From Acidobacteriota bacterium (lineage in GTDB: Bacteria; Acidobacteriota; UBA6911; RPQK01; JAJDTT01), in assembly GCA_965217775.1 (NCBI GenBank), contig CBDCJH010000002.1:4640001-4704000 (forward strand): DNA of 64,000 nucleotides, written 5' to 3'. This document shows, in pieces, positions 22,167 through 56,411 of the stretch. The position numbers and the translations under genes were made by a program. Each line of letters starts with the position of its first letter. Position 1 is the first letter of the stretch. The notes beneath the pieces are model-generated. The model ran no database searches, had not been told where the DNA came from, and saw only the letters and a list, made by a program, of their open reading frames with translations.

Positions 22167-22179
22167 TGTCTGTTTAAAT

Positions 22180-35963: not shown

Positions 35964-35989
35964 GGTGGCGGGGAGGTCGGCGGCAAGAA

Positions 35990-37906
35990 GTCACGGTAGG
36001 AACGGCAGTTTCCTGCCGCCCCCCGCACAGATCCGGACGTGCCCGTTAAGGCATCCGGCTCCTACCTTGGGTGTGGACGGCCAGCGGAACCGCTGCCCCG
36101 GCCACGGGTGACGGATCTTCACGGATGGCCAGAGCAATTCCGTCATCCGTCGCAACCGTCCCCAGCTGAAGCGGTCGCGTTGGGACCGGCGGCGCAAGGC
36201 TCGCAGCCACCGCCGTTGCAGCAGATAGCAGAAACCTCGCAGCCAGCGCGTACTCCCCGGAACCGCAAAATAGTTCAGCCAGCCGTTCAGGACCCGGCTC
36301 AACCATTTCCCGACCTCCCAGTGATCCGCGTGCCGTTGTCTCCACAGCCTCTCCCCCAACCGTTGCAGGGTCCGGTTCATCCGTTTCGCGCTTGGCTTCC
36401 GCCCCAGCCGGAAGCGTCCCTTCCGGGTCTTCGCACAGTAGTGCGTGAACCCCAGAAAGTCGAACGTCTCCGGTTTCCGCTCCCCGCGTCGTCGCCGATC
36501 CGCTGCCGCAAATCGTCCGAACTCCACCAGTCGCGTCTTTTCCGGGTGCAGTTCCAGCCCGAACTCGGCGCACCGTTCCCCCAGGTCTCGGAGAAACCGT
36601 TTCGCGTCCGCCCGTCTCTGGAATCCGGCCACGAAGTCGTCCGCATATCGCACCAGGATCGCTTCGCCTTTCGGGACTCGTGGGCGCCACGTCCGATGGA
36701 ACCATTGGTCCAGCACGTAGTGCAGGTACACGTTGGCCATGACCGGCGAGACGTTGGCGCCCTGAGGCGTCCCTCTCCCCGTGTCCGACCAGGTCCCTTC
36801 TTCCATCACGCCGGCGTTCAGCCACTTGCGCAGCAGCCGCAGCACCCGCCGGTCTCCGATCCGCCGTTCCACGAACTGCATCAGGCAGTCCCGGTCGATC
36901 GCATCAAAGAACGTCCGAATGTCCGCGTCCACGATCCAGTTGACTTTCCGCCGTTCGATCCCGTAGGCCAGTGCATCCAGCGCGTCATGCGCCTTCCGTC
37001 CGGGCCGGAACCCGTAGCTGAGCCCGAGAAACTCCGCCTCGTAAATCGGCGTCAGGAGCTCGTCCACGACTGCCTTCTGGAGGATCTTGTCCTCCAGCGC
37101 GGCCACGCCGAGCGGTCGTGTCCTTCCATCCGGCTTGGGGATGTTCACCCGCCGGACGGGAGGCGCTCGGTACGCGCCCCGGTGCACGCGGCGATGCAGG
37201 TCCAGCAGTCGCTCTTCCAGCTTCGCCCCGTACTCCTCCCACCGGACCCCGTCGATTCCCGGCGCAGCATCCTTCCTCAGTCCGAGGTAGGCGCGGCGCA
37301 GGGCCTCCACAGTGATATGGTGCAGCAGCGCGGTCAGTCGCTCCTTGGGGTTTCTCGCGATCGCTCGCCGTATCCGGTCCACCGCTTGGGACACGCTCCC
37401 CCGACTCTGCGTCCGGCGCGTGCTTTGGCTCACCGAATTCCCCTTGGTTCCATCCCTTCGCTCCACCGGCTCCGCCGAGGGTCGCCCCTCTTTGTTCGCC
37501 CGCTTCATCGCTACTATGGATGAATCCGATTGCTTCGTTCCGTCCATCATGAGTTTCGGGTTACTCCTTTCTCATGCGACCCCGGGGCGACCCCCCGGCG
37601 TGAAATGAAGCCCTCCCAGGTCCCGGAACAAGATTTGCGTACGTGCCTGGGTTCTTTGACACCGCGGAGCCCGGCCGTCCCTCACCTGGGCGGTCCAGCC
37701 GGTGTTGCCTTCGACCGCGACTACAGTCTCGGCACTTCCGATCATGGAGCTTTCGATGCTCAATAGCCTGCCCATACGCACCGCTACCGACGCTTCGCCG
37801 ACACCCTCACGGGTGCCAACGCACGGCTCGCGGAGAAACGTGGATGGTTAGTCCTTCGTTTCGGCGGACTTCCACCGCCTATCTTGTGCCAGTTAGCCTG
37901 GCGCAC
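35990..37906 (-). mobile_element. Group II intron, copy 1 (1917 bp), between gspG and gspH
   Basis: 5' GTGCG; DV GAGCCGGATGC..GCACGTCCGGATCTG; 3' CTACCGTGAC; boundaries confirmed by the identical second copy. Confidence 0.95.
35991..37550 (-). CDS. ltrA: Group II intron reverse transcriptase/maturase, no En domain (bacterial class E-like by recall)
   Basis: APGIDG, IPKPDG, SYGFRPGR, GTPQG, RYADD, FDFLGF, GWLNYF. Confidence 0.95.
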   Translation of the reverse strand: MMDGTKQSDSSIVAMKRANKEGRPSAEPVERRDGTKGNSVSQSTRRTQSRGSVSQAVDRIRRAIARNPKERLTALLHHITVEALRRAYLGLRKDAAPGIDGVRWEEYGAKLEERLLDLHRRVHRGAYRAPPVRRVNIPKPDGRTRPLGVAALEDKILQKAVVDELLTPIYEAEFLGLSYGFRPGRKAHDALDALAYGIERRKVNWIVDADIRTFFDAIDRDCLMQFVERRIGDRRVLRLLRKWLNAGVMEEGTWSDTGRGTPQGANVSPVMANVYLHYVLDQWFHRTWRPRVPKGEAILVRYADDFVAGFQRRADAKRFLRDLGERCAEFGLELHPEKTRLVEFGRFAAADRRRRGERKPETFDFLGFTHYCAKTRKGRFRLGRKPSAKRMNRTLQRLGERLWRQRHADHWEVGKWLSRVLNGWLNYFAVPGSTRWLRGFCYLLQRRWLRALRRRSQRDRFSWGRLRRMTELLWPSVKIRHPWPGQRFRWPSTPKVGAGCLNGHVRICAGGGRKLPFLP

Positions 37907-37920
37907 AGCCGCCGCTCCCC

Positions 37921-38376
37921 CTACCAGGAGGCCACGTCGGCGCTGTCGGATTCGCCTCCTTCCACGCCGTCGGCGCCCCAGCTCCAGAGGTCGTAGTCGC
38001 CGTACTGTCCCGGGGCGCGGTACTGGTACTCACGGCCCCAGGGGTCGTTGGGCAGGGTCCGCTTGTCCAGGTAGGGACCGCTCCAGTTGTGGAGCCCGGC
38101 GTTTTCCAACAAGCTGGTGAGCCCCTCCGCCGTGTTGGGGTAGCGGCCCACGTCGAAACGAAAAAGACCCAGGGCTCCTTCGAACTGGTCGATCTGGAGC
38201 TTGGCGATCTCGCTCTTTCCCCGGCCCAGGCGTTCCATCACCTTGGGACCCACCACCGTGGCCAGAAGTCCCAGGATCACCAGCACCACGATGAGCTCGA
38301 TCAGGGAAAACCCTCGATCGCGTTTCCTTTCCTCCGTTTCCACGGCCTTGGCGGCCTTGTCGACTGTCCTGCTCAC
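37921..38376 (-). CDS. gspG: Major pseudopilin GspG
   Basis: GFSLIEL, GRYPNTAEGL, WSGPYL, DPWG, GADG. Confidence 0.96.
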   Translation of the reverse strand: MSRTVDKAAKAVETEERKRDRGFSLIELIVVLVILGLLATVVGPKVMERLGRGKSEIAKLQIDQFEGALGLFRFDVGRYPNTAEGLTSLLENAGLHNWSGPYLDKRTLPNDPWGREYQYRAPGQYGDYDLWSWGADGVEGGESDSADVASW

Positions 38377-38399
38377 GTCTACCTCCCTTTGATAAGTGC

Positions 38400-39629
38400 C
38401 TACAACGGCACATCGTTGATGCTGAATATGGAATAGAGCATGGAGACCACCATGGTGCCGATGATCAAGCCCATGACCAGGATGAGCAAGGGCTCGAACA
38501 GGGCCACGAACCGCTTGAGCGCCGTCCTCAGGTCGCGGTCGTAGGCGTCGGCGACCTGGAGCAGCATGTCGTCCAGGCGTCCCGTCTCCTCGCCGACCGC
38601 CAGCAGGTGCAGGGCGAAGGGGGGAAAGATATCGGCGTCGCGGATGGGCTTGGACAGCCCGTCTCCCTTCTTGACGCCCGACTTGATGGACTCCATGGTG
38701 GAGGCGATGGCCTGGTTCCCAACCACCTCCTTGACGATGTTCAGGGCCTGAATCAGGGGCACCGTGCTGCGCAGCAGGGTGCCCAGGGTCCGGCTGAAAC
38801 GGGCGACCTCCAGCTTTTGGAAGATGGATCCCAGGAGGGGGAGCTTCAGCATCCGCGAATCCCAGTTGAGCCTTCCCTTCTCAGTCCGGAGGTAGCGCTT
38901 GAAGAACTGCACGATCGCGATCCCCAGCAGCAGGATCAGCCACCAATATCCGGTCAGGACATCCCCGGCGGCCAACATGATCTTCATGGGCAGGGGAATG
39001 GGGGCTCCGGCGTTCTCGAAAATGTCCGCGAACTTGGGGATGATGAAGCCGACCATGACGATGATGGAGGCTCCTCCCACCAGCGCCAGGACCAGAGGGT
39101 AGATGAGGGACGAGACGAAGTAGTTGCGCAGTTCTTCGGAGCGCTCCAGGTACTCCTGCAGGCGCTCCAGGATCTTGTCCAGGGCGCCGCCGATCTCACC
39201 CGCCCGAACCATGTTCACGTAGATCTTGGGGAAGATGTGGGGGTGCATGGCCATGCCTTCGGAAAGGGACTTGCCCCCTTTGATCTCCCGCAGCAGTTCC
39301 TTGACCACGTCGCGCAGATGGCGGTTCTCGGTCAACTCGCCCAGCACGCTCAGGCTCCGGTCCAGGGGCAGACCCGCCTTCACCAGAGTGGAGAGCTCCT
39401 GGGTGAAGACCAGGAGGTCGGCCCGGGCGACTCGATTGCGGCGCCAGGGGAGCTTGATCTCGCGGCTCAGCAGGCCGCCGGACTCGGTGGTGCCGGCGGA
39501 CGAGATGGTCACCGGGAACTGGCCCTGATCCCGGAGGCGCGAGGTGACGCCGCGGACGTTCGCCGCCTCCAACGTGCCCTCGACTACTCGTCCGTCGGCC
39601 GTGACCGCCTTGTACTGGAAGAAAGCCAT
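38400..39629 (-). CDS. gspF: T2SS inner membrane platform protein
   Basis: AGLPL, AGEIGGAL, LIYP, VGEETGRL. Confidence 0.95.
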   Translation of the reverse strand: MAFFQYKAVTADGRVVEGTLEAANVRGVTSRLRDQGQFPVTISSAGTTESGGLLSREIKLPWRRNRVARADLLVFTQELSTLVKAGLPLDRSLSVLGELTENRHLRDVVKELLREIKGGKSLSEGMAMHPHIFPKIYVNMVRAGEIGGALDKILERLQEYLERSEELRNYFVSSLIYPLVLALVGGASIIVMVGFIIPKFADIFENAGAPIPLPMKIMLAAGDVLTGYWWLILLLGIAIVQFFKRYLRTEKGRLNWDSRMLKLPLLGSIFQKLEVARFSRTLGTLLRSTVPLIQALNIVKEVVGNQAIASTMESIKSGVKKGDGLSKPIRDADIFPPFALHLLAVGEETGRLDDMLLQVADAYDRDLRTALKRFVALFEPLLILVMGLIIGTMVVSMLYSIFSINDVPL

Positions 39630-39696
39630 TGGAAGTCCTTCGGACTAAATTCCCGATCCTGCCGGGGATCGAAGAGGGCGCCCACGAAGGGCGCGC

Positions 39697-41409
39697 TTAT
39701 TGATCCTGGGTCACCCTCAATACCTCCGCGACGGAGGTCAGTCCGGTCTTGACCTTGCCGAAGCCGTCCTGGCGCAGTGCCTTCATCCCGCCTTCCAGGG
39801 CCGCCTTTCGCAACCGGGTGGAGTCGGCGTTGGTGATGGTGAGGCGCCGGATCGGCTCGCGCATCAGCATCAGCTCGAAGATCCCGACCCGGCCCTGATA
39901 TCCGGTGTGGTCGCACTCCTTGCAACCCATTCCCTGGGAGGCCGCGACCGCGGACTGCAGAGGGAAGCCGATCTCCCTCAGAAATTCCGGCTCCAGAAAC
40001 TGCTCCTGGCGGCAGTGGGGGCAGACGACCCGGACCAGCCGCTGGGCCAGCACGCCCAGGACCGAGGAGGCCAGCAGATAGTCCTGGGCCCCCATGTCCA
40101 CCAGCCGGGCGATGGCGCTGGGGGCGTCGTTGGTGTGCAGGGTGCTGAAGACCAGGTGACCGGTCAGGGCGGCGCGGATGGCGATCTCCGCCGTCTCCAG
40201 ATCCCGGATCTCTCCGACCATGATGACATCCGGGTCCTGGCGGACGATGGAACGGAGCCCGGCGGCGAAGGTCAACCCGATCTGGGGATTGACGTGGATC
40301 TGGTTGATGCCGTTGATCTGATACTCCACCGGATCCTCGATGGTGATGATCTTCTTGTCGGGGAGATTGATCTTGCTGAGGGCGCCGTAAAGGGTGGTGG
40401 TCTTGCCGCTGCCGGTGGGGCCCGTCACCAGGATGATGCCGTGGGGCCGCAGGATCAGCTTCTGGAACGCCTGGTAGGTTTCGGGTGCGAATCCCAGCTT
40501 TTCCAAGTCGTAGATCTGGGTGTTGCTCTTGTCCAGGATCCGCATGACCACGCTCTCCCCGTACATGGTCGGCAACGTGGACACGCGGAGGTCCACGTCC
40601 TTCCCCAGGACCCTCATCTTGATCCGGCCGTCCTGGGGGATCCGGCGCTCGGCGATGTTGAGCTTGGACATGATCTTGATTCGGGAGATGGTCGCGGCCT
40701 TCAGCCGCTTGGGGGGAGACTCGACGTCGTAGAGGACGCCGTCGATCCGGTAGCGGACCTTGAGTTCCCGTTCGAAGGGCTCGATGTGGATGTCGGAGGC
40801 CCGGGATTGGACGGCTCGGGACAGGATCAGGTTGACCAGACGGATGACGGGAGCTTCGGAAGCCAGATCCTTGAGATGCTCCACGTCGTCGCTGTCTTCG
40901 CCCAAGCCCTCCACGTCGGTGTCGATCCCCTCCACGATGCGCCCCAGACTCGAGGCCTGGTTGCCGTAGAAGCGTTCGATCAGATCCAGGATCTCGTTCT
41001 CGGGGGCCAGGACCACGCTGACCCGGTCGTAACGGGTGTAGAGACGGATGGCGTCCAGGGTGGAGCGGTCCAGGGGGTCCACCATGGCGATGGTCAGCTC
41101 CCCGCCGCCGGTGCCGATGGGAACGAACTTGCATTCCCTCATGAACTGCACCGAGAAGGTGTTCTCCACCACCGGAACCGTCGGGAAGTTTTCGGCCAGG
41201 ACGTAGGGGATTTCCAGATACTCGCTCAGATGCCTGACCAGGTCGGTCTCCGAGAGAGCACCCAGGTCGATGAGCAGCTTGCCCATCTTCTCCCGGGACT
41301 GCTTCCGGAGATTCCGAGCCGTGCTCAACTCCTCCGAAGAGATGACCCCGCGCTCGACGAGGACCTCTCCAAAGAGTGCCTTTTCCTTCAAATCAGCCAG
41401 TTTGACCAT
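39697..41409 (-). CDS. gspE: T2SS ATPase
   Basis: ASDIHIEP, GPTGSGKT, TIEDPVEY, RQDPDVIMVGEIRD, CxxC pairs. Confidence 0.96.
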   Translation of the reverse strand: MVKLADLKEKALFGEVLVERGVISSEELSTARNLRKQSREKMGKLLIDLGALSETDLVRHLSEYLEIPYVLAENFPTVPVVENTFSVQFMRECKFVPIGTGGGELTIAMVDPLDRSTLDAIRLYTRYDRVSVVLAPENEILDLIERFYGNQASSLGRIVEGIDTDVEGLGEDSDDVEHLKDLASEAPVIRLVNLILSRAVQSRASDIHIEPFERELKVRYRIDGVLYDVESPPKRLKAATISRIKIMSKLNIAERRIPQDGRIKMRVLGKDVDLRVSTLPTMYGESVVMRILDKSNTQIYDLEKLGFAPETYQAFQKLILRPHGIILVTGPTGSGKTTTLYGALSKINLPDKKIITIEDPVEYQINGINQIHVNPQIGLTFAAGLRSIVRQDPDVIMVGEIRDLETAEIAIRAALTGHLVFSTLHTNDAPSAIARLVDMGAQDYLLASSVLGVLAQRLVRVVCPHCRQEQFLEPEFLREIGFPLQSAVAASQGMGCKECDHTGYQGRVGIFELMLMREPIRRLTITNADSTRLRKAALEGGMKALRQDGFGKVKTGLTSVAEVLRVTQDQ

Positions 41410-41423
41410 GGGAATTCTCGAAA

Positions 41424-41972
41424 TCAGTACTCCTTGACGTCGACCCGGTCCCTGAAGTTCTCGGTCGAGATCTTCTTCATGGCCACCAGATCGACATCGT
41501 CCTTGGAGGCGGTCAGGACCAGTGTCTTCCGGCTCTTCCGGGCATCCAGCTCGTTCCGGTCGTCCACGTAGGCGGCGATGGAGATGCGGTCGTGGCCCCC
41601 CAACTGCTTGATGCTGTCGCCATACTCGATCAAGGCATCGATGAGGGTCGTCCGGATCACGCGCATGTGCTCCTCGGTGGTGCGTTTCGAAGCCGGCCGC
41701 GGGTCCCGCACCTCGCCGAACGGAGTCCGAATGGTCCTGCGATTCACGTTGATCTGGAAGGAGAAGAGCATCCCGTAGCCCTGCAGATAGGCTCCCCGGG
41801 GCTCACTCGTGATGGCGAACGGATCGGAGAAGTTCTGCTTGAGCACTTCGTGGACGATGCGTTCGAAGATCTCGGTGTCCTGTTTCAACCGCTCCAGGTT
41901 GAGATGCTGCTGGGCGAGTCCGTTCACGCTGGACAACCAGCCTGCAAGCACGACCAGTCCAATGTACCACAT
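41424..41972 (-). CDS. Hypothetical exported protein
   Basis: RBS GAGGAGG, signal peptide; lies between the anti-sigma gene and gspE. Confidence 0.75.
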   Translation of the reverse strand: MWYIGLVVLAGWLSSVNGLAQQHLNLERLKQDTEIFERIVHEVLKQNFSDPFAITSEPRGAYLQGYGMLFSFQINVNRRTIRTPFGEVRDPRPASKRTTEEHMRVIRTTLIDALIEYGDSIKQLGGHDRISIAAYVDDRNELDARKSRKTLVLTASKDDVDLVAMKKISTENFRDRVDVKEY

Positions 41973-42129
41973 CACCTTCAACCCTCCTCTTGGCGACTTG
42001 CGGCCGACTCCGGGGAGTCGACCGGTCGTCGCAAATTCCAAGTTCCAAGCACCAAAACGGGTAGTTCGTTTCGTTTTTTCGGGAAAAGTGTCCGAATTCG
42101 GACACTTTGTACCATTTTCGGACACCTAG

Positions 42130-42182
42130 GAGCCTGCGCCGCAGAAATTGATCCGCTACGATCATTCCTACGGCGCAGACTC
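42130..42182. mobile_element. MITE family C, minimal 53-bp copy
   Basis: GAGCCTGCGCCGCAGAAATTGATC..GATCATTCCTACGGCGCAGACTC inverted ends, flanked by CTAG / CTGG. Confidence 0.6.
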
Positions 42183-42190
42183 CTGGCCCA

Positions 42191-42751
42191 TCAGCGCAGG
42201 ATCAGGGCGCGCATGGTCCGGTACTCCTCCTGAGCATCTCTCTGCTGCAAGTCCAGGGCCTGCAGATACTGATGGATCTGGCCCAGGTCCCGCTCCAGGT
42301 CGTCGCGCACCTGGATCACATACTGCCCGATGAGACGCCGCTCCTCCTCCTGCCGGGCGACCACCACGTCATTGATCGTGGTCTCCAATTCCTGGCGGGT
42401 CACCTCCAGGGTGGCCCGCTCCCCCCAGCCCAGATCCCGGGCGATGACCGTCATCCCCAAGAGCATCAGGATGCAGGCCGCCGCCTTGTAGACGACTTTC
42501 CAGGCCGGACTCCGGTCGACCCCGCGGAGAAATCCGAGGACCTTGGCGCCGGAACCGGCGCCGGCCTCGGGAACCGCCTGGCCCAGGTCCCACTGGCCCA
42601 ACAGGGAACGGGTCTCCACCAACTCCAGGTATTCGGCCTTGCAATCCGGGCAACTCTCCAGGTGGCGGAAGAACTCCAGGCAGCGATCGGGGTTCAGCTC
42701 CTCGCCGTAGAGGACGTCCATCATCCGCTCGTGCATGGTCGTGCAGTTCAT
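42191..42751 (-). CDS. Anti-sigma factor (zf-HC2-like)
   Basis: HLESCPDC, one TM, coupled to the sigma gene. Confidence 0.85.
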   Translation of the reverse strand: MNCTTMHERMMDVLYGEELNPDRCLEFFRHLESCPDCKAEYLELVETRSLLGQWDLGQAVPEAGAGSGAKVLGFLRGVDRSPAWKVVYKAAACILMLLGMTVIARDLGWGERATLEVTRQELETTINDVVVARQEEERRLIGQYVIQVRDDLERDLGQIHQYLQALDLQQRDAQEEYRTMRALILR

Positions 42752-43296: not shown

Positions 43297-43423
43297 CCTC
43301 TTGCCTGTGTGATGAGGATGCGCCATGGCGTCTGAAAGTCTAAAGAAAAAGCGTTTTCGGTCTGAATTCCCAAGGGCCGGTCAACGTCGCCAACGCAGAA
43401 AGACTTTTCTTTGACCGAGCCGC

Positions 43424-43592: not shown

Positions 43593-43594
43593 GT

Positions 43595-44956: not shown

Positions 44957-45126
44957 GGAGCGGCGACTTTCTTGTCGCCGAGCAGGGGGGCAGGGGGGAC
45001 GGAGTCCCCACTTCACACTTTCCCCCCTCTACACGTTCCGGCCACCGAATCGCTTAGCGGCATGGAAGAGCAGGCGGCAAGAAAGCCGCCTGTCCCAGTG
45101 GGCGACAAGAAAGTCGCCCCTCCGGG
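44957..45126. repeat. Composite REP cluster (empty homologue of the intron copy 2 site)
   Basis: Aligns by eye to 53193-53318 + 55236-55277; three GGCG(A/G)CAAGAAAG(T/C)CGCC hairpins. Confidence 0.85.
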
Positions 45127-45133
45127 TCGACCC

Positions 45134-48100: not shown

Positions 48101-50974
48101 TCCCGGCTCGGGTGTGGCCAGCAGCAGGTCCACCGAATGAAAGCCCTGATCACCGTCGATGACGGCCGCCGCAGCGAAGTCGTCGTTGGCGGGGCGTTGG
48201 GCCACTCCGGAGCCCCCGCTTCCGCCGGGTGCAACTTCCACCGAGGCGGACGCTCCCTTGGCGTTCCAGGCGCTCGCCGTAAAGTAGAGGCGGACCGGAT
48301 CTCCGTCCCCGACGGAAGAGACGACGAACCGGACTTCCTGGGTCTCCCCGGCGGCGATCTCGCCGAGCGGGATCGACGAACCCAGCGGGATAGGAGAACC
48401 CTCGGAGATCGGCGAAACCGGAGGATCCGAAGGCGCCGGTGGTTCCGATCCCGGGGGACGGACGGGGGTTCCAAGTTCATCCGACAGGTCGACCGAAATC
48501 CCGTCTTCGCGAGAAACGGCCATGGAGTGGATCCGGATCTGCTCGCAACCGGAAGCCTCGGCGGTGTCCCGGCAGTCGAGGTGCAACCGGCTGCCGGCCG
48601 CCACATACTCGTCCGCGGTCACCGTCACAAGCAGTTCCTGTTCCTCCTGGCCCATAAGCAGGTTTTGGTCGGTGCCGATCATCAGATTCGGCGTGGACGC
48701 GCCCCGGATCACCGTCCATGCCAGCGCGGCCCTGGGCGGCGCCGTGTAGACCCGGCGGGCCACCACCTTCGCCCGATACGTGCCCGGTCGGGGATTCTTC
48801 AGGATGATCCACTCCACGTTGTCCACTCGGGACGTCGAGAAATGCTCCCCGCAAGCTCCTTCCCCGCAGTCGCCGTCACGGTCCAACCACAGGTCCAGGT
48901 CGTTCAGCACCGTGCTGGCGATGGTGTCCGCCGGCGGTTCGTCCCAGGTCATCACCAGGTCGAGACGGCTGGCTCCCGCCGGCACATCGATGTCGTGGTG
49001 GGCGTACTCCCCGTCCCGGAGTTCCGAAACCGCGCCGCCACCGATCCAGCCGCCGGCCCCGTCCCGGTTGAGGATGCCGGTGCGAGCCGAGACCTTGCCC
49101 AGACCGTATTGCGCCTGCATCGACCCGGGGCCTCCGGTGTTGGTGGAGGGGAAGGCGTCCGGGGCGTCCAGCCAGGGGTCCGGGCGGATGGCTCCGGCCA
49201 GCAGTCTGGCCCGGGCCAACGCCGGGTGTTCCTGGTGTTCCGGGGCGGCGTCCATCAACAGGGCGGCCACCCCCGCCACCGTGGGGGAGGACATGCTGGT
49301 GCCGCTGATCGCCCGATATTCGCCACGGCTCCCGCCGCCGACGGCCGAGTGGACGCGGACACCGGTGGCGACGACCTGAGGCGCCAGGCGTCCGTCCGCC
49401 GTGGGTCCGTGGCTGCTGAACAGTGCGAGGGCTCCGCTGTCCAGGGCGGCACCTACGGAGAGGGAGTTCTTGGCGGCTCCGAAATCGGAGAAGCCATCGA
49501 TGTTCTCGTTGGACTGCGCGACGACGTACAGTTGGCGATGCCCCCAGACGATGGAATCCAGCTTGCGTTCGGCGAATCCCCTGCCGTCGAACGTCCTGGA
49601 GGAAGAGCTCAGACTCATGTTGACGATCAGGGGCCTGACGGGATCGGAGAATCGGCCCGGTTCGGCACACTCCGTCGCCTCGGCCAGGAAGTCCATCCCG
49701 CGAAGAATCGAGTCGACCGAACCGAAGCCAAAGCTGTTGAGCACTCGCCCGAAACGGATGTGCTTCACCGAAGGCGCCATGCCGGCGAAACGGCGCTGGA
49801 CAGACCCGTTTCCGATCATGGTCCCGGTCACGTGGGTTCCGTGGCCTCCTTCGTCGATCCAGAGATCCTCCGCCTCATTCGCGGGAGAGGAAAAGAAGGA
49901 AAACCAAGCGAGGTTGGCGCCGCAGATGCTCTCCCGGTTCGACCCGATGTCCAAGTGGTTGACGTTGAGCCCGGTGTCCATGACCCCGATGGGGACGGAA
50001 GCGCCGCCCATGCCGGAGAAGATCCCGGGGGAACCGTCGTACGCTCGCAGGGCGTCCGCCCCCATGGCGGGAACGGAGGTGTCGTGCGCCGGCCGGACGA
50101 CGCCGACCGGTTCCACGGCCAATACGTAATCGGCCGCGGCGATGGCTTCCACTTGACCGTGGGAAACGTTGGCCGTGTAGGCCCGCAGATCCGGATCCCA
50201 CCGGCCCACTACGGCGCCCTGGTCCTCCAACGCCCGCCGCCACCGGCCGTCGGGATCGTCCGTCATCAGGGTGATGAAGACGGGCGCCTGATCTTGAGGG
50301 GGCGCTTCCATCAGCTCGCGGGCGAACGCCTCCGGAAGTTTCCGCTCCGGGGGGACGGCACCCAGCCCGTCGACTTCCGGCAGGGCTACGATCTCGTGCA
50401 ACAGGGCCGGGTCACCGGGCAGTCGGGCGCGGACGAGGTTGCCCGAGGAACCGAGAGCCGTTGCGCCGAACTCGGCGAGAGACCCCGTCACGTCGCTCGG
50501 CATGGCGTCGCCGGCCAGCCGGACCCAGCCGAAGGACCAGTCGCGTGCGGCGGCGGTCGCCTGGTCGACGAGTGCCTCGATGGACAGGCTTGCGTCCATC
50601 CAGTCCGGACCGGCACTCGGCCGCTCGTCGCCGGCATCGGCGTCGCCTGCGATTCGCGCGCGGGGCATCTCCCCGTGGTAGGAGATGAAGGAATAACCGT
50701 CGGGCGGCGAGGGAACCGTGTCCTCCGCGGATTTATCGACGGCGGGCGGTGTTTCAGCCGTTCGGGGCGCCGCCTGAATCTCAAGTTCCGGGACAGTTCC
50801 CCCACTTTCGGCTTCGATCCGGGCCATGGCGGCACGGGTCGCCATCGCCTCTCCCGTCAGCTCCGGCTCCGGCTCTTCGCCAGGCGTCATGTAGTAGGCG
50901 ATCAGCCCCGCCAGGCCAGCGGCCACGGCCAACGACATCAGGACAAGGATGGTTCGCTTATTTGCTGTCCGCAT
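45134..50974 (-). CDS. Large multidomain S8 (subtilisin-like) serine peptidase
   Basis: VMDTG, GHGTH and GTSMS triad; repeated (N)DDF/ND..A Ig-like modules; C-terminal beta-propeller-like region. Confidence 0.92.
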   Translation of the reverse strand: MRTANKRTILVLMSLAVAAGLAGLIAYYMTPGEEPEPELTGEAMATRAAMARIEAESGGTVPELEIQAAPRTAETPPAVDKSAEDTVPSPPDGYSFISYHGEMPRARIAGDADAGDERPSAGPDWMDASLSIEALVDQATAAARDWSFGWVRLAGDAMPSDVTGSLAEFGATALGSSGNLVRARLPGDPALLHEIVALPEVDGLGAVPPERKLPEAFARELMEAPPQDQAPVFITLMTDDPDGRWRRALEDQGAVVGRWDPDLRAYTANVSHGQVEAIAAADYVLAVEPVGVVRPAHDTSVPAMGADALRAYDGSPGIFSGMGGASVPIGVMDTGLNVNHLDIGSNRESICGANLAWFSFFSSPANEAEDLWIDEGGHGTHVTGTMIGNGSVQRRFAGMAPSVKHIRFGRVLNSFGFGSVDSILRGMDFLAEATECAEPGRFSDPVRPLIVNMSLSSSSRTFDGRGFAERKLDSIVWGHRQLYVVAQSNENIDGFSDFGAAKNSLSVGAALDSGALALFSSHGPTADGRLAPQVVATGVRVHSAVGGGSRGEYRAISGTSMSSPTVAGVAALLMDAAPEHQEHPALARARLLAGAIRPDPWLDAPDAFPSTNTGGPGSMQAQYGLGKVSARTGILNRDGAGGWIGGGAVSELRDGEYAHHDIDVPAGASRLDLVMTWDEPPADTIASTVLNDLDLWLDRDGDCGEGACGEHFSTSRVDNVEWIILKNPRPGTYRAKVVARRVYTAPPRAALAWTVIRGASTPNLMIGTDQNLLMGQEEQELLVTVTADEYVAAGSRLHLDCRDTAEASGCEQIRIHSMAVSREDGISVDLSDELGTPVRPPGSEPPAPSDPPVSPISEGSPIPLGSSIPLGEIAAGETQEVRFVVSSVGDGDPVRLYFTASAWNAKGASASVEVAPGGSGGSGVAQRPANDDFAAAAVIDGDQGFHSVDLLLATPEPGEPLFGPRSGRPAGSVWYRWTAPADGAVRFNLHPPGELGGARNDRVDVFRGDAIAALEGVASDQWGAIFFAEEGEIYRIRVSHMLRGIALDLRWSQGDRPVNDDFDRAAVLEGASGAVRGSSQGATLEPGEWFGIDAGTTWYRWTAPGDGWWRFSSDPTKRVFAFEGDGIPALRLVSQLPAGAADFPAAAGNEYRIAVAAPSADAPSGPYELSWEGLLIAAVLDNDQHIGAMPLESVPSSQFIIGIDPVATVEPGEPLETGVRTRWWVWEAPEDGRYTWRLQEPVTYSYLRVTVFSGPSMQGPTSIEDLDLVAQTRPHVAPADFVFQANAGQRYWIAVGFPARSFEAYLLPAATAFVTWGPTPDNDNLAAAAALDEASGSVSDSNRFASTERGERTSLLGHSSLWWTYEAAAAGWYRFWLDDPYSPWVLSIYEDSRDGSGSIEFVRSSHQPEGIEADAIEVVFRGEEGSRYTVRLGARGDHPGSDFTLNWEETDPPVWLKYAGRLADGDRDANGASVRLRGPASLAFNGRGTALYAASRLGLQVFERNSKTGGLALTQLLEDDGLEDSSLIWDPHRDRLYAHRCGTWRGFAPIDETQRELDDEGAIPVTGDPPATAECSPGEFGDLFMDGEGSFLNAVLPGAGQLQILALDTPGELPHVQTLEVPGLTRALISNAGGHVYAGTFRSLHVFERDAETGTLTDATKGVNPLFGLEALAITGDDRHLFVFHGNGWSATVFDLEADPTDPSPLGTLEVTPAWPRLPDFPIPIPGFPSFGSSGSCALAGIRRGTPAVDVFCTDLAYDVEWRPGPDDADNGDVEPDDAPPGEFALTDYVSNRQPDRFNNPVPEFGETRSLATSPDGRHAYVDTENEGILVFERIGAGAAETGLGDSAYIRLESLSVSPGRVTFGPVSTAGCIGLEDAVIDGIHYAVVNSGWQTRASSDGEWSDVEGTRTTGQLCAYAPSSAGEYRLAAEIRIDGELGRYSSNTIQ

Positions 50975-51016
50975 AATCCACCTGCTTCTCCGACCCGGAT
51001 TTCTCACCCGGGGCCT

Positions 51017-52438
51017 TCAATTCGACGAAATGGAGACCTTGGAAATCGTCCAGTCCCCGTCCTCATCCCGGCTTGCGATGAGGGTGACCTGATACTCATT
51101 GAGAGTCGCGTCTTCGATGTTGTGGCTCTGAGCGTGACAGAGAATGACCTGTTCCATCCGCAGACAGGCCGTGCCGCTGGCGGCCACGGCAAAGGTGCCG
51201 ACGGTGTTGCCTCCGGCATCCTTCAGGTCGCATTGGCCGCCCGGTGGAATGACGCTCCCGGCGGCGCAGGCCTGGGCAGAGGGTTCGGTGACGGTGAGCG
51301 TCGCCGTGGCCGTCGCCGTTTGTCCGTCCCCGTCTTGAACCGTGATGCGATAGGTCGTGGTGGCTGTGGGCGACACGGTCCGCGATCCGGACGTCGGGAC
51401 GGCGCCGATATCAGGGATGATCTCCGCGCTCTCGGCGTTTGTCGACGTCCAACTCAAGGTCGCTTCCCGGCCCCGTTCGATGGAGGTGGGAGAAACCGAG
51501 ATCCTCGCCGCCGGCCGTGTCGTGGGCTCACCATCGGGGAAGTGAATCGGGGTCGTGATGGGGACGCTGGTGACCGGGATCGAGCTGAAGAGATGCCCCG
51601 ATTGCAGGAGCACGATCGGATGGACGTCGAAAATCTCCTCCGGCTCATCGTCCTCATTCACCCGGCGAAGATGGAGGGTGCCATAGAATTGCGGACCGAC
51701 CTCGGGGAAGAACTCGTCAACGTACAGCGCCTGATGCCCGCCCGGTCCGAGTGTCAGTGGCTTGCTGGAGTTGTGTTCTCCCTCGGAATCGAGAAGATAG
51801 GCCCTCAGGCGAGCCGCACCGCCCGAACTGTTCGCCAACGCCAGCGCCGTTCTGGTGCGGGCCGCGGTGTCCCGGACCACCGGTAGAGAAAACGCGGGCG
51901 TTCCCAGACTAGCCCCGACACCGACGATGGCGCTGATTCGCCGGTTATCGGGATCGAAGAGACTGTAGGCGGCGACTCCTCCGATCCGCTTGCCGGAGGG
52001 AGCCGACGCGCTCGCCCAACCCACCGAGAGGTTTCCGGAACCGCCGGTCTCCAGAAAGACCGATTGAGAGGCGGGTATGGTGACCGAAATCGAGTCGCCC
52101 GACCCAGCCAATTCGTCCGTTCCCAATCGGTAGAGGTCGACGACCATGCCCAACCCGTCGGAACGCCGGAACCGGAGGGTCGCCACGAGTTCGTCCTCTT
52201 CGGCATTGGTGAGAAATATGGCGGTGGTGATTCCGATGCCTTCGTCGACCCCGTCCGCCACTTGCGGGAATACGACTTCGTTGCCCGCACCGGTGACGAA
52301 CTGCACTTGTCCTGCCAGCTCGGTGAGCGCGCCGATCTTCTGTTGATGCGGTGCGGACGGCTCACCTTCGGCCAAGGTGAGCGCAACCCCCAGGGACAAG
52401 ACCCACGGCATGGCTGCCGGGACCGATCTTCGTGTCAT
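51017..52438 (-). CDS. Exported protein with PKD/Ig-like domain
   Basis: RBS GGAGG, signal peptide, ATLSWTSTNA..VSPTATTTYRIT. Confidence 0.8.
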   Translation of the reverse strand: MTRRSVPAAMPWVLSLGVALTLAEGEPSAPHQQKIGALTELAGQVQFVTGAGNEVVFPQVADGVDEGIGITTAIFLTNAEEDELVATLRFRRSDGLGMVVDLYRLGTDELAGSGDSISVTIPASQSVFLETGGSGNLSVGWASASAPSGKRIGGVAAYSLFDPDNRRISAIVGVGASLGTPAFSLPVVRDTAARTRTALALANSSGGAARLRAYLLDSEGEHNSSKPLTLGPGGHQALYVDEFFPEVGPQFYGTLHLRRVNEDDEPEEIFDVHPIVLLQSGHLFSSIPVTSVPITTPIHFPDGEPTTRPAARISVSPTSIERGREATLSWTSTNAESAEIIPDIGAVPTSGSRTVSPTATTTYRITVQDGDGQTATATATLTVTEPSAQACAAGSVIPPGGQCDLKDAGGNTVGTFAVAASGTACLRMEQVILCHAQSHNIEDATLNEYQVTLIASRDEDGDWTISKVSISSN

Positions 52439-52691
52439 GTTTTTTCCTCCACCGGCGTTAGGTGCTTTATATGGTAGCAACTAAGGCGTGGTTGGTGAGG
52501 ACCAGGGGGTGGATTAGAGGGTGGCCCAGGGGCGATGTCCGGACGCCCCGCCTGTCGCCTGCCACGAGGGTTTGTCAATCGTATCGCCAGGCGACTTTTG
52601 CCACGAGGGGCGGACTGCTAAGCTGGAATATGTTGCGCGTCGTTGAAACGGAGGTGTCCGTCACGGGACGCCCGTGCGGGAGACGATACGG

Positions 52692-53144
52692 ATGAACGCC
52701 TCGTTCGACACTCTCGCGGCCGCCCGCGAGCTGGAATCCGGTGGCTTCGACGACAAGCAAGCTGCAGTCTTGCTGAAGGTCATGCGCATGAGTGGAGAGT
52801 CCACCGTCACGAAATCCGATCTCGCCCTCGTGAAATCGGATCTCTCCCGCATGGATGAGTCGTTGCGGCGAGAGATCGTCGCAACCAGAGTTGAACTCCG
52901 GTCCTCGATTGCCGAGTTGCGCACGGAAATTGCATCCACTGCGGGCGAGGTGCGTGCAGAAATTGCATCTATTACGGTCGAGTTGCGTGCAGAAATTGCA
53001 TCTACTACGGTCGAGTTGCGCGGAGAAATCGCCACGGCCAAGGCGGAGCTCCGAGCGGACATGAATGCCATGGCCAACAAGATGCTCCTCTCTCAGTTGG
53101 CCGTTGCCGGACTCCTCTTTGCCGCGATCAAGACCTTCACGTGA
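52692..53144 (+). CDS. DUF1640/CCDC90-like coiled-coil protein
   Basis: FDTLAAARELESGGF, VTKSDL, ELRAEIA 11-mer repeats, C-terminal TM. Confidence 0.85.
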   Translation: MNASFDTLAAARELESGGFDDKQAAVLLKVMRMSGESTVTKSDLALVKSDLSRMDESLRREIVATRVELRSSIAELRTEIASTAGEVRAEIASITVELRAEIASTTVELRGEIATAKAELRADMNAMANKMLLSQLAVAGLLFAAIKTFT

Positions 53145-53167
53145 AGCCGACCCTTTCCTGTCGCCGA

Positions 53168-53318
53168 GGGAGCGGCGGTTTCCAGCCGCCGAAGGAGCGG
53201 CGGTTTCTAGCCGCCGATCAGGGGGGCAGGGGGGACGGAGTCCCCACTGTACACTTTCCCCCTCAATACTTTCCGGTCACCGAATCGCGTAGCAAGATAG
53301 AAGAGCAGGCGACAAGAA
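53168..53318. repeat. Composite REP cluster, left of intron copy 2 (continues at 55236-55295)
   Basis: GGAGCGGCGGTTTC(C/T)AGCCGCCGA twice, GGGGACGGAGTCCCC, and a half-hairpin GGCGACAAGAA. Confidence 0.85.
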
Positions 53319-55235
53319 GTCACGGTAGGAACGGCAGTTTCCTGCCGCCCCCCGCACAGATCCGGACGTGCCCGTTAAGGCATCCGGCTCCTACCTTGGG
53401 TGTGGACGGCCAGCGGAACCGCTGCCCCGGCCACGGGTGACGGATCTTCACGGATGGCCAGAGCAATTCCGTCATCCGTCGCAACCGTCCCCAGCTGAAG
53501 CGGTCGCGTTGGGACCGGCGGCGCAAGGCTCGCAGCCACCGCCGTTGCAGCAGATAGCAGAAACCTCGCAGCCAGCGCGTACTCCCCGGAACCGCAAAAT
53601 AGTTCAGCCAGCCGTTCAGGACCCGGCTCAACCATTTCCCGACCTCCCAGTGATCCGCGTGCCGTTGTCTCCACAGCCTCTCCCCCAACCGTTGCAGGGT
53701 CCGGTTCATCCGTTTCGCGCTTGGCTTCCGCCCCAGCCGGAAGCGTCCCTTCCGGGTCTTCGCACAGTAGTGCGTGAACCCCAGAAAGTCGAACGTCTCC
53801 GGTTTCCGCTCCCCGCGTCGTCGCCGATCCGCTGCCGCAAATCGTCCGAACTCCACCAGTCGCGTCTTTTCCGGGTGCAGTTCCAGCCCGAACTCGGCGC
53901 ACCGTTCCCCCAGGTCTCGGAGAAACCGTTTCGCGTCCGCCCGTCTCTGGAATCCGGCCACGAAGTCGTCCGCATATCGCACCAGGATCGCTTCGCCTTT
54001 CGGGACTCGTGGGCGCCACGTCCGATGGAACCATTGGTCCAGCACGTAGTGCAGGTACACGTTGGCCATGACCGGCGAGACGTTGGCGCCCTGAGGCGTC
54101 CCTCTCCCCGTGTCCGACCAGGTCCCTTCTTCCATCACGCCGGCGTTCAGCCACTTGCGCAGCAGCCGCAGCACCCGCCGGTCTCCGATCCGCCGTTCCA
54201 CGAACTGCATCAGGCAGTCCCGGTCGATCGCATCAAAGAACGTCCGAATGTCCGCGTCCACGATCCAGTTGACTTTCCGCCGTTCGATCCCGTAGGCCAG
54301 TGCATCCAGCGCGTCATGCGCCTTCCGTCCGGGCCGGAACCCGTAGCTGAGCCCGAGAAACTCCGCCTCGTAAATCGGCGTCAGGAGCTCGTCCACGACT
54401 GCCTTCTGGAGGATCTTGTCCTCCAGCGCGGCCACGCCGAGCGGTCGTGTCCTTCCATCCGGCTTGGGGATGTTCACCCGCCGGACGGGAGGCGCTCGGT
54501 ACGCGCCCCGGTGCACGCGGCGATGCAGGTCCAGCAGTCGCTCTTCCAGCTTCGCCCCGTACTCCTCCCACCGGACCCCGTCGATTCCCGGCGCAGCATC
54601 CTTCCTCAGTCCGAGGTAGGCGCGGCGCAGGGCCTCCACAGTGATATGGTGCAGCAGCGCGGTCAGTCGCTCCTTGGGGTTTCTCGCGATCGCTCGCCGT
54701 ATCCGGTCCACCGCTTGGGACACGCTCCCCCGACTCTGCGTCCGGCGCGTGCTTTGGCTCACCGAATTCCCCTTGGTTCCATCCCTTCGCTCCACCGGCT
54801 CCGCCGAGGGTCGCCCCTCTTTGTTCGCCCGCTTCATCGCTACTATGGATGAATCCGATTGCTTCGTTCCGTCCATCATGAGTTTCGGGTTACTCCTTTC
54901 TCATGCGACCCCGGGGCGACCCCCCGGCGTGAAATGAAGCCCTCCCAGGTCCCGGAACAAGATTTGCGTACGTGCCTGGGTTCTTTGACACCGCGGAGCC
55001 CGGCCGTCCCTCACCTGGGCGGTCCAGCCGGTGTTGCCTTCGACCGCGACTACAGTCTCGGCACTTCCGATCATGGAGCTTTCGATGCTCAATAGCCTGC
55101 CCATACGCACCGCTACCGACGCTTCGCCGACACCCTCACGGGTGCCAACGCACGGCTCGCGGAGAAACGTGGATGGTTAGTCCTTCGTTTCGGCGGACTT
55201 CCACCGCCTATCTTGTGCCAGTTAGCCTGGCGCAC
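53319..55235 (-). mobile_element. Group II intron, copy 2
   Basis: Apparently identical to 35990-37906 (offset 17329; all ORF translations identical). Confidence 0.95.
53320..54879 (-). CDS. ltrA: Group II intron reverse transcriptase/maturase
   Basis: Identical 519-aa protein to copy 1. Confidence 0.95.
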   Translation of the reverse strand: MMDGTKQSDSSIVAMKRANKEGRPSAEPVERRDGTKGNSVSQSTRRTQSRGSVSQAVDRIRRAIARNPKERLTALLHHITVEALRRAYLGLRKDAAPGIDGVRWEEYGAKLEERLLDLHRRVHRGAYRAPPVRRVNIPKPDGRTRPLGVAALEDKILQKAVVDELLTPIYEAEFLGLSYGFRPGRKAHDALDALAYGIERRKVNWIVDADIRTFFDAIDRDCLMQFVERRIGDRRVLRLLRKWLNAGVMEEGTWSDTGRGTPQGANVSPVMANVYLHYVLDQWFHRTWRPRVPKGEAILVRYADDFVAGFQRRADAKRFLRDLGERCAEFGLELHPEKTRLVEFGRFAAADRRRRGERKPETFDFLGFTHYCAKTRKGRFRLGRKPSAKRMNRTLQRLGERLWRQRHADHWEVGKWLSRVLNGWLNYFAVPGSTRWLRGFCYLLQRRWLRALRRRSQRDRFSWGRLRRMTELLWPSVKIRHPWPGQRFRWPSTPKVGAGCLNGHVRICAGGGRKLPFLP

Positions 55236-56411
55236 AGTCGCCTCTCCCAGTGGGCGACTGGAAATCGCCCCTCCGGGCGATTGGAAATTGCCCGTCCCGC
55301 AGACTTCCCGGATCATGCGGCGATAGATCTCCACCGCTGCTTCGAGTTGCTCGATGGAGATCCACTCTCCCACCGTGTGGGCCTGGGCGATGTTGCCGGG
55401 ACCCAGGACCACCAATTCGTCGACCTGGTCCTTGATCCAGATGGAGTCGGTACCGTAGGGGACGGTCTTGGGCTTCCGTCCGCCGCCGGCCCGGGATGCC
55501 AGTTGCACCAGGTCGGCATCGGGAGGAACGTAGAAAGGACCCTTGTACGCGGTCTCCACCTCCAGGCCGTGGGCTCTGGCCCTGCCGGCGACGATCTCCA
55601 TCAGTTCCCGGCTCTGGTCGCCGGGCATGGGCCGGAAGCCGACTTGGCAGGTGCACCTGGCCGCGCTCACGTTGGGGCGGGTGCCGCCGTCCTCGAAGAC
55701 CATGTTGAAACCGTTGGTGGGCGGATCGAAGTCCGGGTTCCGGTAGCGGGGATCCTTTTTCACATCCTTGGCCAGCTCAGCCATCTCGGCCAGGAAAGGA
55801 GCGATCAGAAAATTGGCCGAGGTGCCGAGATCGGTGCTGGTGTGGGCCGCTCTGCCCCGGGCCGTGGCCATGACCAGGACTCCGCCCTTGTGGGCATAGA
55901 CCGGCCACAACTCGGTAGGCTCGGCCACTACAGCGTAGGTCGGCCGTGCTTCGTTGAAGAACCGGGACTCCCGGACCACCTGCTTGGCCCCGCCCCCGCC
56001 CACTTCCTCGTCGGCGGTGGCCATGACCAGGACCGGATGCTTCAGGTCCCCTGAGTCCACCGTCGCGGCCGCAGCCATGGTGGCCGCCAGAGGTCCCTTC
56101 ATGTCGCAGGATCCCCTTCCGGAAATCTTTCCGTCCCCGGCCACCGGGTCGTAGGGGTCCCAGTCCTCTTCCTGTCCCGGCACCGTGTCGGTGTGGGAGA
56201 AGAAGGCCAACCCCCCCGTTCCCGATCCCTTCCGGCCGACGATGCTGACCTTGGTCTCCCCGTTTTCGTCCACGTAGTCGAGGCGCTCGGTTTCGAAGCC
56301 GTGCTCTCGAAACCGCTCCTCCACCAGGTCGGAGATCAGAGCGTTGCTCCAGCGGCTGACGGATTTGATGGCGACGAGATCCCGGGTCAGGGAAACAGGG
56401 TCGAGTTGCAT
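55113..56411 (-). CDS. argE: M20 family metallopeptidase / acetylornithine deacetylase
   Basis: SHTDTVP, GRGSCDMKG, DEE, VAEPT, GPG..AHT; no stop before the intron, so the ORF runs into it. Confidence 0.85.
   Translation of the reverse strand: MQLDPVSLTRDLVAIKSVSRWSNALISDLVEERFREHGFETERLDYVDENGETKVSIVGRKGSGTGGLAFFSHTDTVPGQEEDWDPYDPVAGDGKISGRGSCDMKGPLAATMAAAATVDSGDLKHPVLVMATADEEVGGGGAKQVVRESRFFNEARPTYAVVAEPTELWPVYAHKGGVLVMATARGRAAHTSTDLGTSANFLIAPFLAEMAELAKDVKKDPRYRNPDFDPPTNGFNMVFEDGGTRPNVSAARCTCQVGFRPMPGDQSRELMEIVAGRARAHGLEVETAYKGPFYVPPDADLVQLASRAGGGRKPKTVPYGTDSIWIKDQVDELVVLGPGNIAQAHTVGEWISIEQLEAAVEIYRRMIREVCGTGNFQSPGGAISSRPLGEATVRQANWHKIGGGSPPKRRTNHPRFSASRALAPVRVSAKRR

Follow-up and report, generated by a model that had tools for sequence, protein, structure and literature searches.

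A putative mobile group II intron with exon-binding sites complementary to the REP elements of an Acidobacteriota genome

How does one intron come to interrupt two small palindromes, 17 kb apart, at exactly the same base? The question is raised by a 64,000-nucleotide (nt) stretch of DNA, hereafter the window, which corresponds to positions 4640001-4704000 of contig C2 in a two-contig, 6.43-Mb metagenome-assembled genome (MAG) of an Acidobacteriota bacterium (G000; completeness 97.9%, contamination 7.5%). The window contains two copies of a group II intron, each located inside a repetitive extragenic palindromic (REP) element. The element appears to be a mobile group II intron that is ordinary in its parts and in its likely mechanism. 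Very probably, it is an endonuclease-less (En-less), IIB-like intron whose three exon-binding sites (EBS) are complementary to the REP consensus of its host, such that REPs would be reached by ordinary base-pairing retrohoming.

Two introns in split REP elements

The original prediction, which was made from the window sequence alone, reported two identical 1917-bp introns that split the same palindrome at the same base. Alignment of the copies and their flanks confirms this. The direct repeat (offset 17329 nt) is 100% identical across window positions 35984-37908. Both introns are 1917 nt long and, on the minus strand, start with GTGCGCC and end with CCGTGAC, so that their ends (GTGCG...GAC) agree with the group II boundary consensus (5' GUGYG / 3' AY). 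The introns, their open reading frames (ORFs) and the exon halves that surround them, with the intron-binding sites (IBS) that are discussed below, are as follows.

35990-37906, minus strand: copy A of the intron, 1917 nt, located between pseudopilin genes that resemble gspG and gspH (boundaries, RF02005 match, identity to copy B)
53319-55235, minus strand: copy B of the intron, with the same sequence as copy A (RF02005, 166.7 bits)
35990-36063, minus strand: domains V-VI of copy A, in which the AGC triad and, 8 nt before the 3' end, a bulged A can be recognized (RF00029 alignment)
35991-37550, minus strand: intron-encoded reverse transcriptase (RT)/maturase ORF of copy A, 519 amino acids (TIGR04416)
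53320-54879, minus strand: the same RT/maturase ORF in copy B
37907-37918, minus strand: 5' exon half-REP of copy A, consisting of IBS2 GGAGC, spacer G and IBS1 GCGGCT
35979-35989, minus strand: 3' exon half-REP of copy A, consisting of loop TTCTT (first T = IBS3) and 3' arm GCCGCC
55236-55247, minus strand: 5' exon half-REP of copy B, GGAGA-G-GCGACT
53308-53318, minus strand: 3' exon half-REP of copy B, TTCTT-GTCGCC

Both copies match the Rfam model RF02005 (group-II-D1D4-6) with 166.7 bits, against a cut-off of 49, and domains V and VI (D5-D6) match RF00029 with 37.5 bits (E-value: 2.8e-5), slightly below the cut-off of 40. The encoded protein has the conserved domains TIGR04416 (355 bits, cut-off 300) and RVT_1 (Pfam, 121.5 bits) and contains a YADD motif. 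No HNH or other endonuclease domain was found in a Pfam scan to E<=10, which returned RVT_1 and a weak GIIM match only; as in the En-less lineages C, D, E and F, the DNA-binding/endonuclease (D/En) region is absent. The closest solved RT structures are those of IIC enzymes (7uim, 6ar1; E-value about 1e-47), and the nearest relatives in a plasmid tblastn search are 52-58% identical and annotated only as ltrA. The ORF may belong to class D, E or F. Toro 2013 and the Rfam model number offer a lead towards class F: this class is IIB, En-less and includes an acidobacterial intron (Toro 2013, PMC3552965), and the passages of the papers that mention the Rfam D1D4 models give no link between model numbers and ORF classes. 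The intron is predicted to splice.

The RT/maturase frame is open across D5-D6 (35991-36063, minus strand), and its TGA stop lies one base short of the 3' end of the intron. Homologues with 50-58% identity align up to residue 519, which indicates that the overlap of the ORF with D5-D6 is conserved.

On the minus strand, copy A is flanked as GGCGGCT^TTCTTGCCGCC and copy B as GGCGACT^TTCTTGTCGCC (^ marks the insertion point), and the arms of the two REPs differ from each other by compensatory changes. The consensus of this REP family is GGAGn-GGCGRC-T^TTCTT-GYCGCC, with a unit of 25 nt. Its core, the 18-mer pattern GGCGRC-TTTCTT-GYCGCC, has 106 exact copies in C2 (6.3 Mb), and GGAG is present just 5' of the core in about 90% of them. 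Folded as DNA, the unit has a 7-bp stem and a 6-nt loop (-8.6 kcal/mol). Related hairpin families with other stems or loops have 26-58 copies each. The elements are extragenic: only 12 of the 106 lie inside a coding mask that spans 55.7% of the genome (p=1e-21; the mask is approximate and based on GC content at third codon positions, GC3). G000 also has a repeat family that is commoner than the REPs, with 18-mers such as GCGCCTTGTCCGGCGGGC present about 100 times per strand and chained into a longer unit.

A BLAST search of the G000 genome with the intron identified 10 full-length copies (98.9-100% identical, three of them at 100%), one internally deleted copy, four ORF-less derivatives (OL1 to OL4; 640-755 nt, about 83-87% identity) and one 67-nt 5' fragment. 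The 519-aa frame is intact in nine of the 10 full-length copies. Nine of the 10 also split a REP-like palindrome, eight with perfect 6-7-bp arms and one with a single arm mismatch; one of these nine is hosted by a variant REP, GGGCGA-TTTCCAG-TCGCCC (C2:3106433). The tenth (C2:3931636) is 100% identical to the window copies, is preceded by GGAGAT-GCGGCT without a palindrome and interrupts an ORF in frame and in the sense direction. In the sister genome G001, all 10 full-length copies are in REP-like palindromes. The same REP half also precedes the deleted copy, three ORF-less copies and the 67-nt fragment of G000. OL1 and OL2 have a common 3' flank and may represent one event or a tandem duplication, and OL3 is located in a different, GTAG-tagged palindrome. 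Across all REP families and EBS variants, the insertion point lies 0-2 nt past the 5' arm. These results bear out the predicted specialization on REPs and the predicted insertion within the loop. Copies outside REPs had been named as evidence to the contrary, and one of the 10 G000 copies is of this kind, being in a gene, with the remaining nine in REPs.

Two copies have internal insertions. OL4 (C2:1903834-1904588) is 755 nt long owing to an AT-rich palindromic insert of about 112 nt in domain I; the OL4 insertion and its flanks are also found in genome G011 and so the insertion is old. In a G001 copy (C1:1404251-1406597), about 2 kb of foreign DNA has inserted into the intron itself, after its nt 61.

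Contigs from four sequencing runs were compared with window positions 34500-39400. In X1 and X5 (kind not recorded) and X7 (RNA), contigs connect 35989 with 37919 or 37922 through 10-12 intervening nucleotides, at a depth equal to that of the flanks. These contigs hint at an intact, intron-less REP allele in a strain that is ~98% identical, a presence/absence polymorphism that fits the intron boundaries. Contig depth over the intron is high relative to the flanks in all four runs, but no conclusion is drawn from depth or from uncovered stretches, as these are contigs. Both the three 100% identical copies and the strain whose contigs join over copy A as an intact REP indicate recent activity, and the intron may be mobile at present. 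RNA runs labelled as sponge metagenome contain near-identical pieces of the flanks (3 differences in 276 nt).

Exon-binding sites and REP families across the genus

The target sequence can be read from domain I. The first 330 nt of the intron were aligned with introns of three sister genomes (identity 97%, 91% and 89%), with ORF-less copies and with introns that encode 50-57% identical proteins. Three exon-binding sites were located by their position in the Rfam model and by their complementarity to the exons.

37717-37722 (copy A) and 55046-55051 (copy B), minus strand: EBS1 AGUCGC (intron nt 185-190), in a terminal loop that is unpaired in the Rfam consensus
37746-37750, minus strand: EBS2 GCUCC (intron nt 157-161), in an unpaired stretch of the Rfam alignment
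37657, minus strand: EBS3 A (intron nt 250, GGUGUC[A]AAGAACC), from the complementarity column

Seven EBS1/IBS1 pairs were found: AGUCGC/GCGRCU, AGUCCC/GGGACU, AAUCGC/GCGAUU, AACCCC/GGGGUU, GGUCGC/GCGACC, GGGUGC/GCACCC and GGAUGC/GCAUCU. Among the 37 copies with a readable loop, EBS1 pairs with the copy's own 5' exon at six of six positions in 34 and at five of six in three (G-U pairs counted), and in more distant introns EBS1 likewise matches the intron's own exon. The three variants of EBS2 (GCUCC, CCUAC and CAUGC) match GGAGC, GUAGG and GCAUG, respectively, at exon positions -12 to -8. Intron nt 250 is the sole alignment column that is complementary to the first base of the 3' exon in 11 of 11 introns (A/T, T/A and G/C). 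The intron thus appears to read 12 nt of the REP: the tag (IBS2), the 5' arm with the first T of the loop (IBS1) and the next T (IBS3).

Because an EBS2 is present, the intron is not of class IIC, which has only EBS1 and EBS3 (PMC3522654), and it can be described as IIB-like. IIC introns insert past a complete terminator or attC hairpin; here EBS2 covaries with the exon and the cut is inside the hairpin. On all of these points the original prediction stood up. Its non-IIC assignment agrees with an EBS2 and a IIB-type EBS3 that covary with the exons, and the proposed EBS1, AGUCGC at 37717-37722, lies in a loop that is unpaired in Rfam and covaries over seven variants. The suggested tolerance of both REP variants (GCGACT and, by a G-U wobble, GCGGCT) was recovered in the pairing analysis, and the three exon-binding sites that it proposed to confirm by folding domain I were obtained from the Rfam alignment and exon covariation.

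A DNA search of the genus and family with the first 300 nt as query, which reaches relatives of about 80% identity or better, found the lineage in seven of the eight other genomes of the genus and in none of 52 genomes from other genera of the family and order. G002 encodes one cognate RT gene (91% identical) and has about 11 further copies, eight of them ORF-less (640-648 nt). EBS1 is AGUCCC in six of these further copies (five ORF-less), which are located in GGGGGAC-type REPs; REPs with a GGGGAC stem number 313 in G002, compared with 17 in G001 (control pattern: 0). Other G002 copies have AAUCGC and are in GGCGAU-type REPs, and one has the exon-binding sites GGUCGC, CCUAC and G and is in a GTAG-tagged REP. 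Some G002 copies share flanks, so that not all are independent events, and three (L036, L044 and L050) have no 3' end within the 1.8 kb of sequence examined. G010 has 642-nt mini-introns in REPs (L068, L076, L084 and L090). No cognate RT gene was found in G010 (best match 32-36% identical); its mini-introns are either relics or served by a foreign protein.

G003 has an 89% identical sister intron (L013-L015, locus positions about 2130-4060) with EBS1 GGAUGC, EBS2 CAUGC and EBS3 U. This intron interrupts, at codon 3/4, a tyrosine-recombinase gene of which there are three copies, all with the same flanks. It represents classic homing into a mobile element rather than into a REP. Judged from these alignments, the exon-binding sites have probably diversified together with the REP families, with EBS1 following the dominant REP of each genome.

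The proposed model for targeting is as follows. EBS2 GCUCC would pair with the 5' tag of the REP, GGAG(C), and EBS1 AGUCGC with GCGRCU, which consists of the five bases at the end of the 5' arm and the first T of the loop (with G-U pairing for the GGCGGC variant). The next T of the loop would be bound by EBS3 A. Once excised, the intron RNA, together with the RT/maturase, would then reverse-splice between the first and second bases of the loop. Because the protein has no endonuclease, cDNA synthesis would presumably be primed at replication forks. EBS1, and sometimes EBS2 and EBS3, would shift to follow different REP families within the genus, and the ORF-less mini-introns would presumably use the protein in trans.

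Strand use and competing explanations

Priming at the fork fits the distribution of the full-length copies over the two strands. The origin of G000 lies at the cumulative GC-skew minimum (5.0 Mb, with dnaA at 5,011,059), and the maximum forms a plateau at 1.44-1.68 Mb. All minus-strand copies are located at 2.16-4.69 Mb and all plus-strand copies at 5.17-6.09 Mb, such that the sense strand is on the lagging-strand template for all 10 full-length copies and for the deleted copy. Empty REPs have this usable orientation in 56 of 106 cases (full-length copies versus empty sites, p=0.0017). If only exact-motif REPs are counted, full-length copies occupy 7 of 64 usable and 0 of 53 other sites (p=0.016). 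In G001 (dnaA at 3.50 Mb), minus-strand copies are found at 0.87-3.12 Mb and plus-strand copies at 4.30-5.42 and 0.013 Mb, and 10 of 10 fit. One locus is common to G000 and G001, and so 19 of 19 distinct loci obey the rule (p=3.8e-6). It is also obeyed by 3 of 3 copies in G003 and 11 of 12 in G002. The strand bias that had been suspected from the common orientation of the two window copies therefore extends to every full-length copy of both genomes. En-less introns such as RmInt1 are known to prefer the lagging-strand template (PMC8914252; also PMC4424553).

Whether the REP is recognized as sequence or as structure can be addressed by counting eligible sites. C2 contains 179 sites with the exact motif GGAGNNGCGRCT (occupied sites were counted via their flanks). 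Of the REP hairpin sites, 9 of 66 are occupied if they have the usable orientation and 1 of 54 if they have the opposite one; for non-hairpin sites these values are 1 of 34 and 0 of 25. In the usable orientation, occupancy of REP and non-REP sites does not differ significantly (9/66 versus 1/34, p=0.16), a comparison of low power. When GGAGNNGCGRCT must be followed by a T at position +1, 122 sites remain, of which 113 are REP hairpins and only 9 are not. Base pairing alone would appear to account for the preference for REPs.

The strongest competing explanation, although distinctly the less likely one, is survivorship: the intron may insert at any IBS-like sequence, with genic insertions being purged and those in extragenic REPs persisting. 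REPs are indeed extragenic (12 of 106 in a coding mask that covers 55.7%), the sole non-REP copy is in a gene and among the youngest (100% identity), and 9420 GCGRCT hexamers are present outside hairpins. However, EBS2 and EBS3 match the REP as well, the full 12-nt target is nearly REP-specific (113/122), and EBS1 tracks the REP that dominates in each genome, a pattern not expected from purging alone. Survivorship complements targeting by base pairing rather than excluding it.

Two explanations that give the hairpin itself a role are less likely again. In the first, which seems improbable, the intron needs the REP as both structure and sequence: a hairpin on the lagging template would stall or mark the fork and present the edge of its loop, and the ribonucleoprotein (RNP) would invade the 5' arm. 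In the second, which is slightly more doubtful still, the RNP would recognize the shape of a hairpin on the single-stranded lagging template, as IIC introns do at terminators and attC sites, and pairing would merely fine-tune the cut. Recognition by shape could explain why the cut position is so constant, at 0-2 nt past the 5' arm whatever the REP family or EBS variant, and the strand rule implies single-stranded targets, in which hairpins can form. Two G001 copies are in GGGGGAC hairpins; EBS1 matches at five of six positions in one of them and could not be read in the other. Nineteen of the 20 full-length copies in G000 and G001 are in hairpins, compared with 66% expected from IBS2 and IBS1 (p=0.003), and the nearest solved RTs are those IIC enzymes mentioned above.

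Against this, IBS1 is the 5' arm, so that the hairpin and EBS1-IBS1 pairing are mutually exclusive and the hairpin must be open when EBS1 binds. The hairpin excess vanishes when the +1 T is required (p=0.56; eligible sites were counted in G000 only), a 100% identical copy occupies a palindrome-free site, and neither the three copies of the G003 sister lineage nor five of five more distant relatives are in hairpins. REP families of common architecture would give the same constant cut position. Mismatched arms occur in 3 of 10 occupied REPs with a TTTCTT loop, compared with 2 of 106 empty ones, which suggests that a stable stem is not required. The data do not support recognition of the hairpin itself, although such recognition may contribute.

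The mismatched arms are hybrids (GGCGAC with GCCGCC, one mismatch), and the occupied REPs of this type are located at C2:5165874, 4407265 and 4406059; the numbers are small, and OL1 and OL2 possibly represent a single event. Hybrid arms are likewise present in the intron-less allele that other strains have at copy A. Either a weakened hairpin makes a better target, or the two arms diverge by drift after their separation.

The strand pattern might instead be due to transcription, if introns persist only when they point in the same direction as host genes, which are enriched on the leading strand, and can thereby be transcribed and spliced. In G000, the gene upstream has the same direction as the intron for five of the 10 copies, a sixth copy is in the sense direction inside a gene, and copy A is inside the gsp operon. 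However, the copy at C2:2157334 is antisense to both neighboring genes, that at 5305087 directly adjoins an opposite-strand gene and lacks a co-oriented one on its upstream side, and that at 6086483 is between divergent genes, yet the replication rule holds for each of them. Agreement at 19 of 19 loci is probably also more than an ordinary gene-strand bias would produce. Because antisense and opposed copies follow the rule, replication explains it better than does transcription, which is quite unlikely to be its cause.

Some points weigh against targeting by pairing and priming at the fork as proposed here. Three of them have been given above, namely the hairpin excess over the IBS2 and IBS1 expectation, the constant cut position, which could reflect a structural constraint, and the mismatched or unreadable EBS1 of the two G001 copies. 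Others concern the strand rule: one G002 copy (5.33 Mb) and OL4 in G000, the sole exception among 16 G000 elements, do not follow it, the replichores of G001-G003 were assumed to be symmetric from dnaA, and gene orientations near the copies come from a crude GC3 ORF finder. The remainder concern the allele at copy A, where support is weak because one side of the contig joint is only 29 nt long and was accepted at a likeness threshold of 90%; an interpretation of these contigs as spliced RNA was rejected, as the same form is found in X5, a run not recorded as RNA.

Finally, that the copies are an assembly artefact, as the original prediction had feared for the duplicate, or a segmental duplication together with their flanks is unlikely in the extreme: although the MAG has 7.5% contamination and the common 3' flank of OL1 and OL2 may reflect tandem duplication, all 10 full-length G000 copies have different flanks beyond the REP, the same element is found at other loci in at least seven of the eight sister genomes, and contigs of independent runs cover the intron and its flanks.

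Host REPs, known systems and significance

Six matches to the REP pattern were observed in the window, compared with 0.01 expected from shuffles. Empty sites had been predicted near 44960, 45073, 45101 and 11889; all four exist, the last with one mismatch, and two further sites were found.

45073-45118 (45073-45090 and 45101-45118), minus strand: tandem pair of empty REPs in the orientation used by the intron in this replichore (two DNA hairpins, -19 kcal/mol, z = -7.3)
44962-44979, plus strand: empty REP in the orientation that is unused here (hairpin, -8.6 kcal/mol)
35416-35433, plus strand: empty REP with the unused orientation, at a distance of 560 nt from copy A
11889-11906, minus strand: empty REP with one mismatch
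10815-10832, minus strand: empty REP
25597-26268, plus strand: gene for a Y1 transposase of 223 amino acids that resembles REP-associated tyrosine transposases (RAYT-like; PF01797, 30.6 bits; NCBIfam REP_Tyr_transpos, 78.3 bits, below the cut-off of 80)
26268-26292, plus strand: variant REP GGAGG-GGCGAT-TTCCA-GTCGCC, abutting the stop codon of the RAYT-like gene (hairpin, -10.3 kcal/mol)

The RAYT-like gene is one of three Y1 transposase (Y1_Tnp) genes in G000; the other two adjoin other repeat families. The variant REP that follows it is the same variant that hosts the intron copy at C2:3106433. No REP was seen 5' of the gene in the window, and the variant REP is on its 3' side only. A RAYT-REP link is plausible. 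The description of these elements as RAYT-type REPs is only partly borne out: a RAYT-like gene has a variant REP at its stop codon, but the score of 78.3 bits falls short of the cut-off of 80 and the REP is on one side only.

Other features of the window include a third group II match in Rfam (5909-6052, minus strand; RF02003, D1D4-4, 73.1 bits), which is a domain I fragment. No RT gene was found behind it, as the next minus-strand ORF encodes no such enzyme. A tandem array of seven copies (period about 104 nt) is located at 21393-22317, and a pair of 300-nt repeats (411 nt apart, 84% identical) at 19430-20140. A 446-aa ORF beside the RAYT-like gene (23665-25005, minus strand) has CxxC motifs and transposase-like features.

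The known intron closest in behavior to this one is RmInt1 of Sinorhizobium meliloti (class D, IIB-like, En-less). Both have an RT/maturase without an endonuclease and are targeted by EBS1, EBS2 and EBS3. The RmInt1 protein has about 419 amino acids and its homing site is in the insertion sequence (IS) ISRm2011-2, whereas here the protein has 519 amino acids and the target is a 25-nt REP hairpin with about 100-300 copies. RmInt1 has a multicopy homing site, and its target specificity is said to diverge to avoid saturation (PMC4181065).

IIC introns are similar to this intron in that they are En-less, located beside DNA hairpins in intergenic DNA and provided with many sites per genome (PMC4424553; PMC12584367). 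However, they insert downstream of the whole hairpin and have a short IBS1 (PMC3522654); here the cut is inside the hairpin and the 5' arm serves as IBS1. The likeness to IIC hairpin targeting concerns location, not mechanism.

Intron families with diverged exon-binding sites and ORF-less derivatives are also found in Thermosynechococcus elongatus. Nested introns of Methanosarcina likewise have diverged EBS sequences and ORF-less copies (PMC4424553). Like the intron described here, these families spread by a change of target, have ORF-less copies that need a protein in trans and possess a perpetual homing site; their targets are other introns or assorted sites, whereas here the target is a REP family of the host.

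REPs are also the preferred targets, harmless and present in many copies, of several insertion sequences (ISPpu9, ISPpu10, ISPa11, ISPsy8 and IS1397; Tobes and Pareja 2006, PMC1525189). These are DNA transposons guided by their transposase, whereas the intron would pair its RNA with the REP. A group II intron of Pseudomonas putida KT2440 is REP-associated in only two of nine copies, and the passage that describes it (PMC1525189) gives no complementarity between its EBS and the REP, compared with 9 of 10 and 10 of 10 copies with covariation here. The target strategies that a review lists for bacterial group II introns are specific homing sites, terminators and attC sites (PMC4424553), and only IIC introns are named as hairpin-associated in a passage of a 2025 paper (PMC12584367). 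Apart from the P. putida case, a literature search, which did not extend to subscription journals, found no group II intron specialized on REPs.

If the intron does need the hairpin as structure, which seems improbable, it would represent a second, independently evolved form of hairpin targeting among group II introns, in a IIB-like lineage, and its spread would depend on the RAYT/REP system of the host. The natural targets are matched (perfect, wobble and mismatched stems) and could be used to test the effect of the hairpin on reverse splicing into DNA. For the full-length copies of the two genomes G000 and G001, the strand rule is perfect, and elsewhere it has only single exceptions, which is unusually clean genomic evidence for use of the lagging template by En-less introns.

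What appears to be new is that the homing site is a repeat family of the host rather than one gene or an IS element, so that a genome would offer the intron some hundred or more neutral sites in which to land; usual homing introns, by contrast, have single sites or a few tens per genome. The change of EBS sequences in step with the dominant REP stem would form a natural retargeting series that can be read base by base. Within a single genome, the RAYT-like gene, its REPs, the autonomous intron and the ORF-less mini-introns would together represent a layered parasitism.

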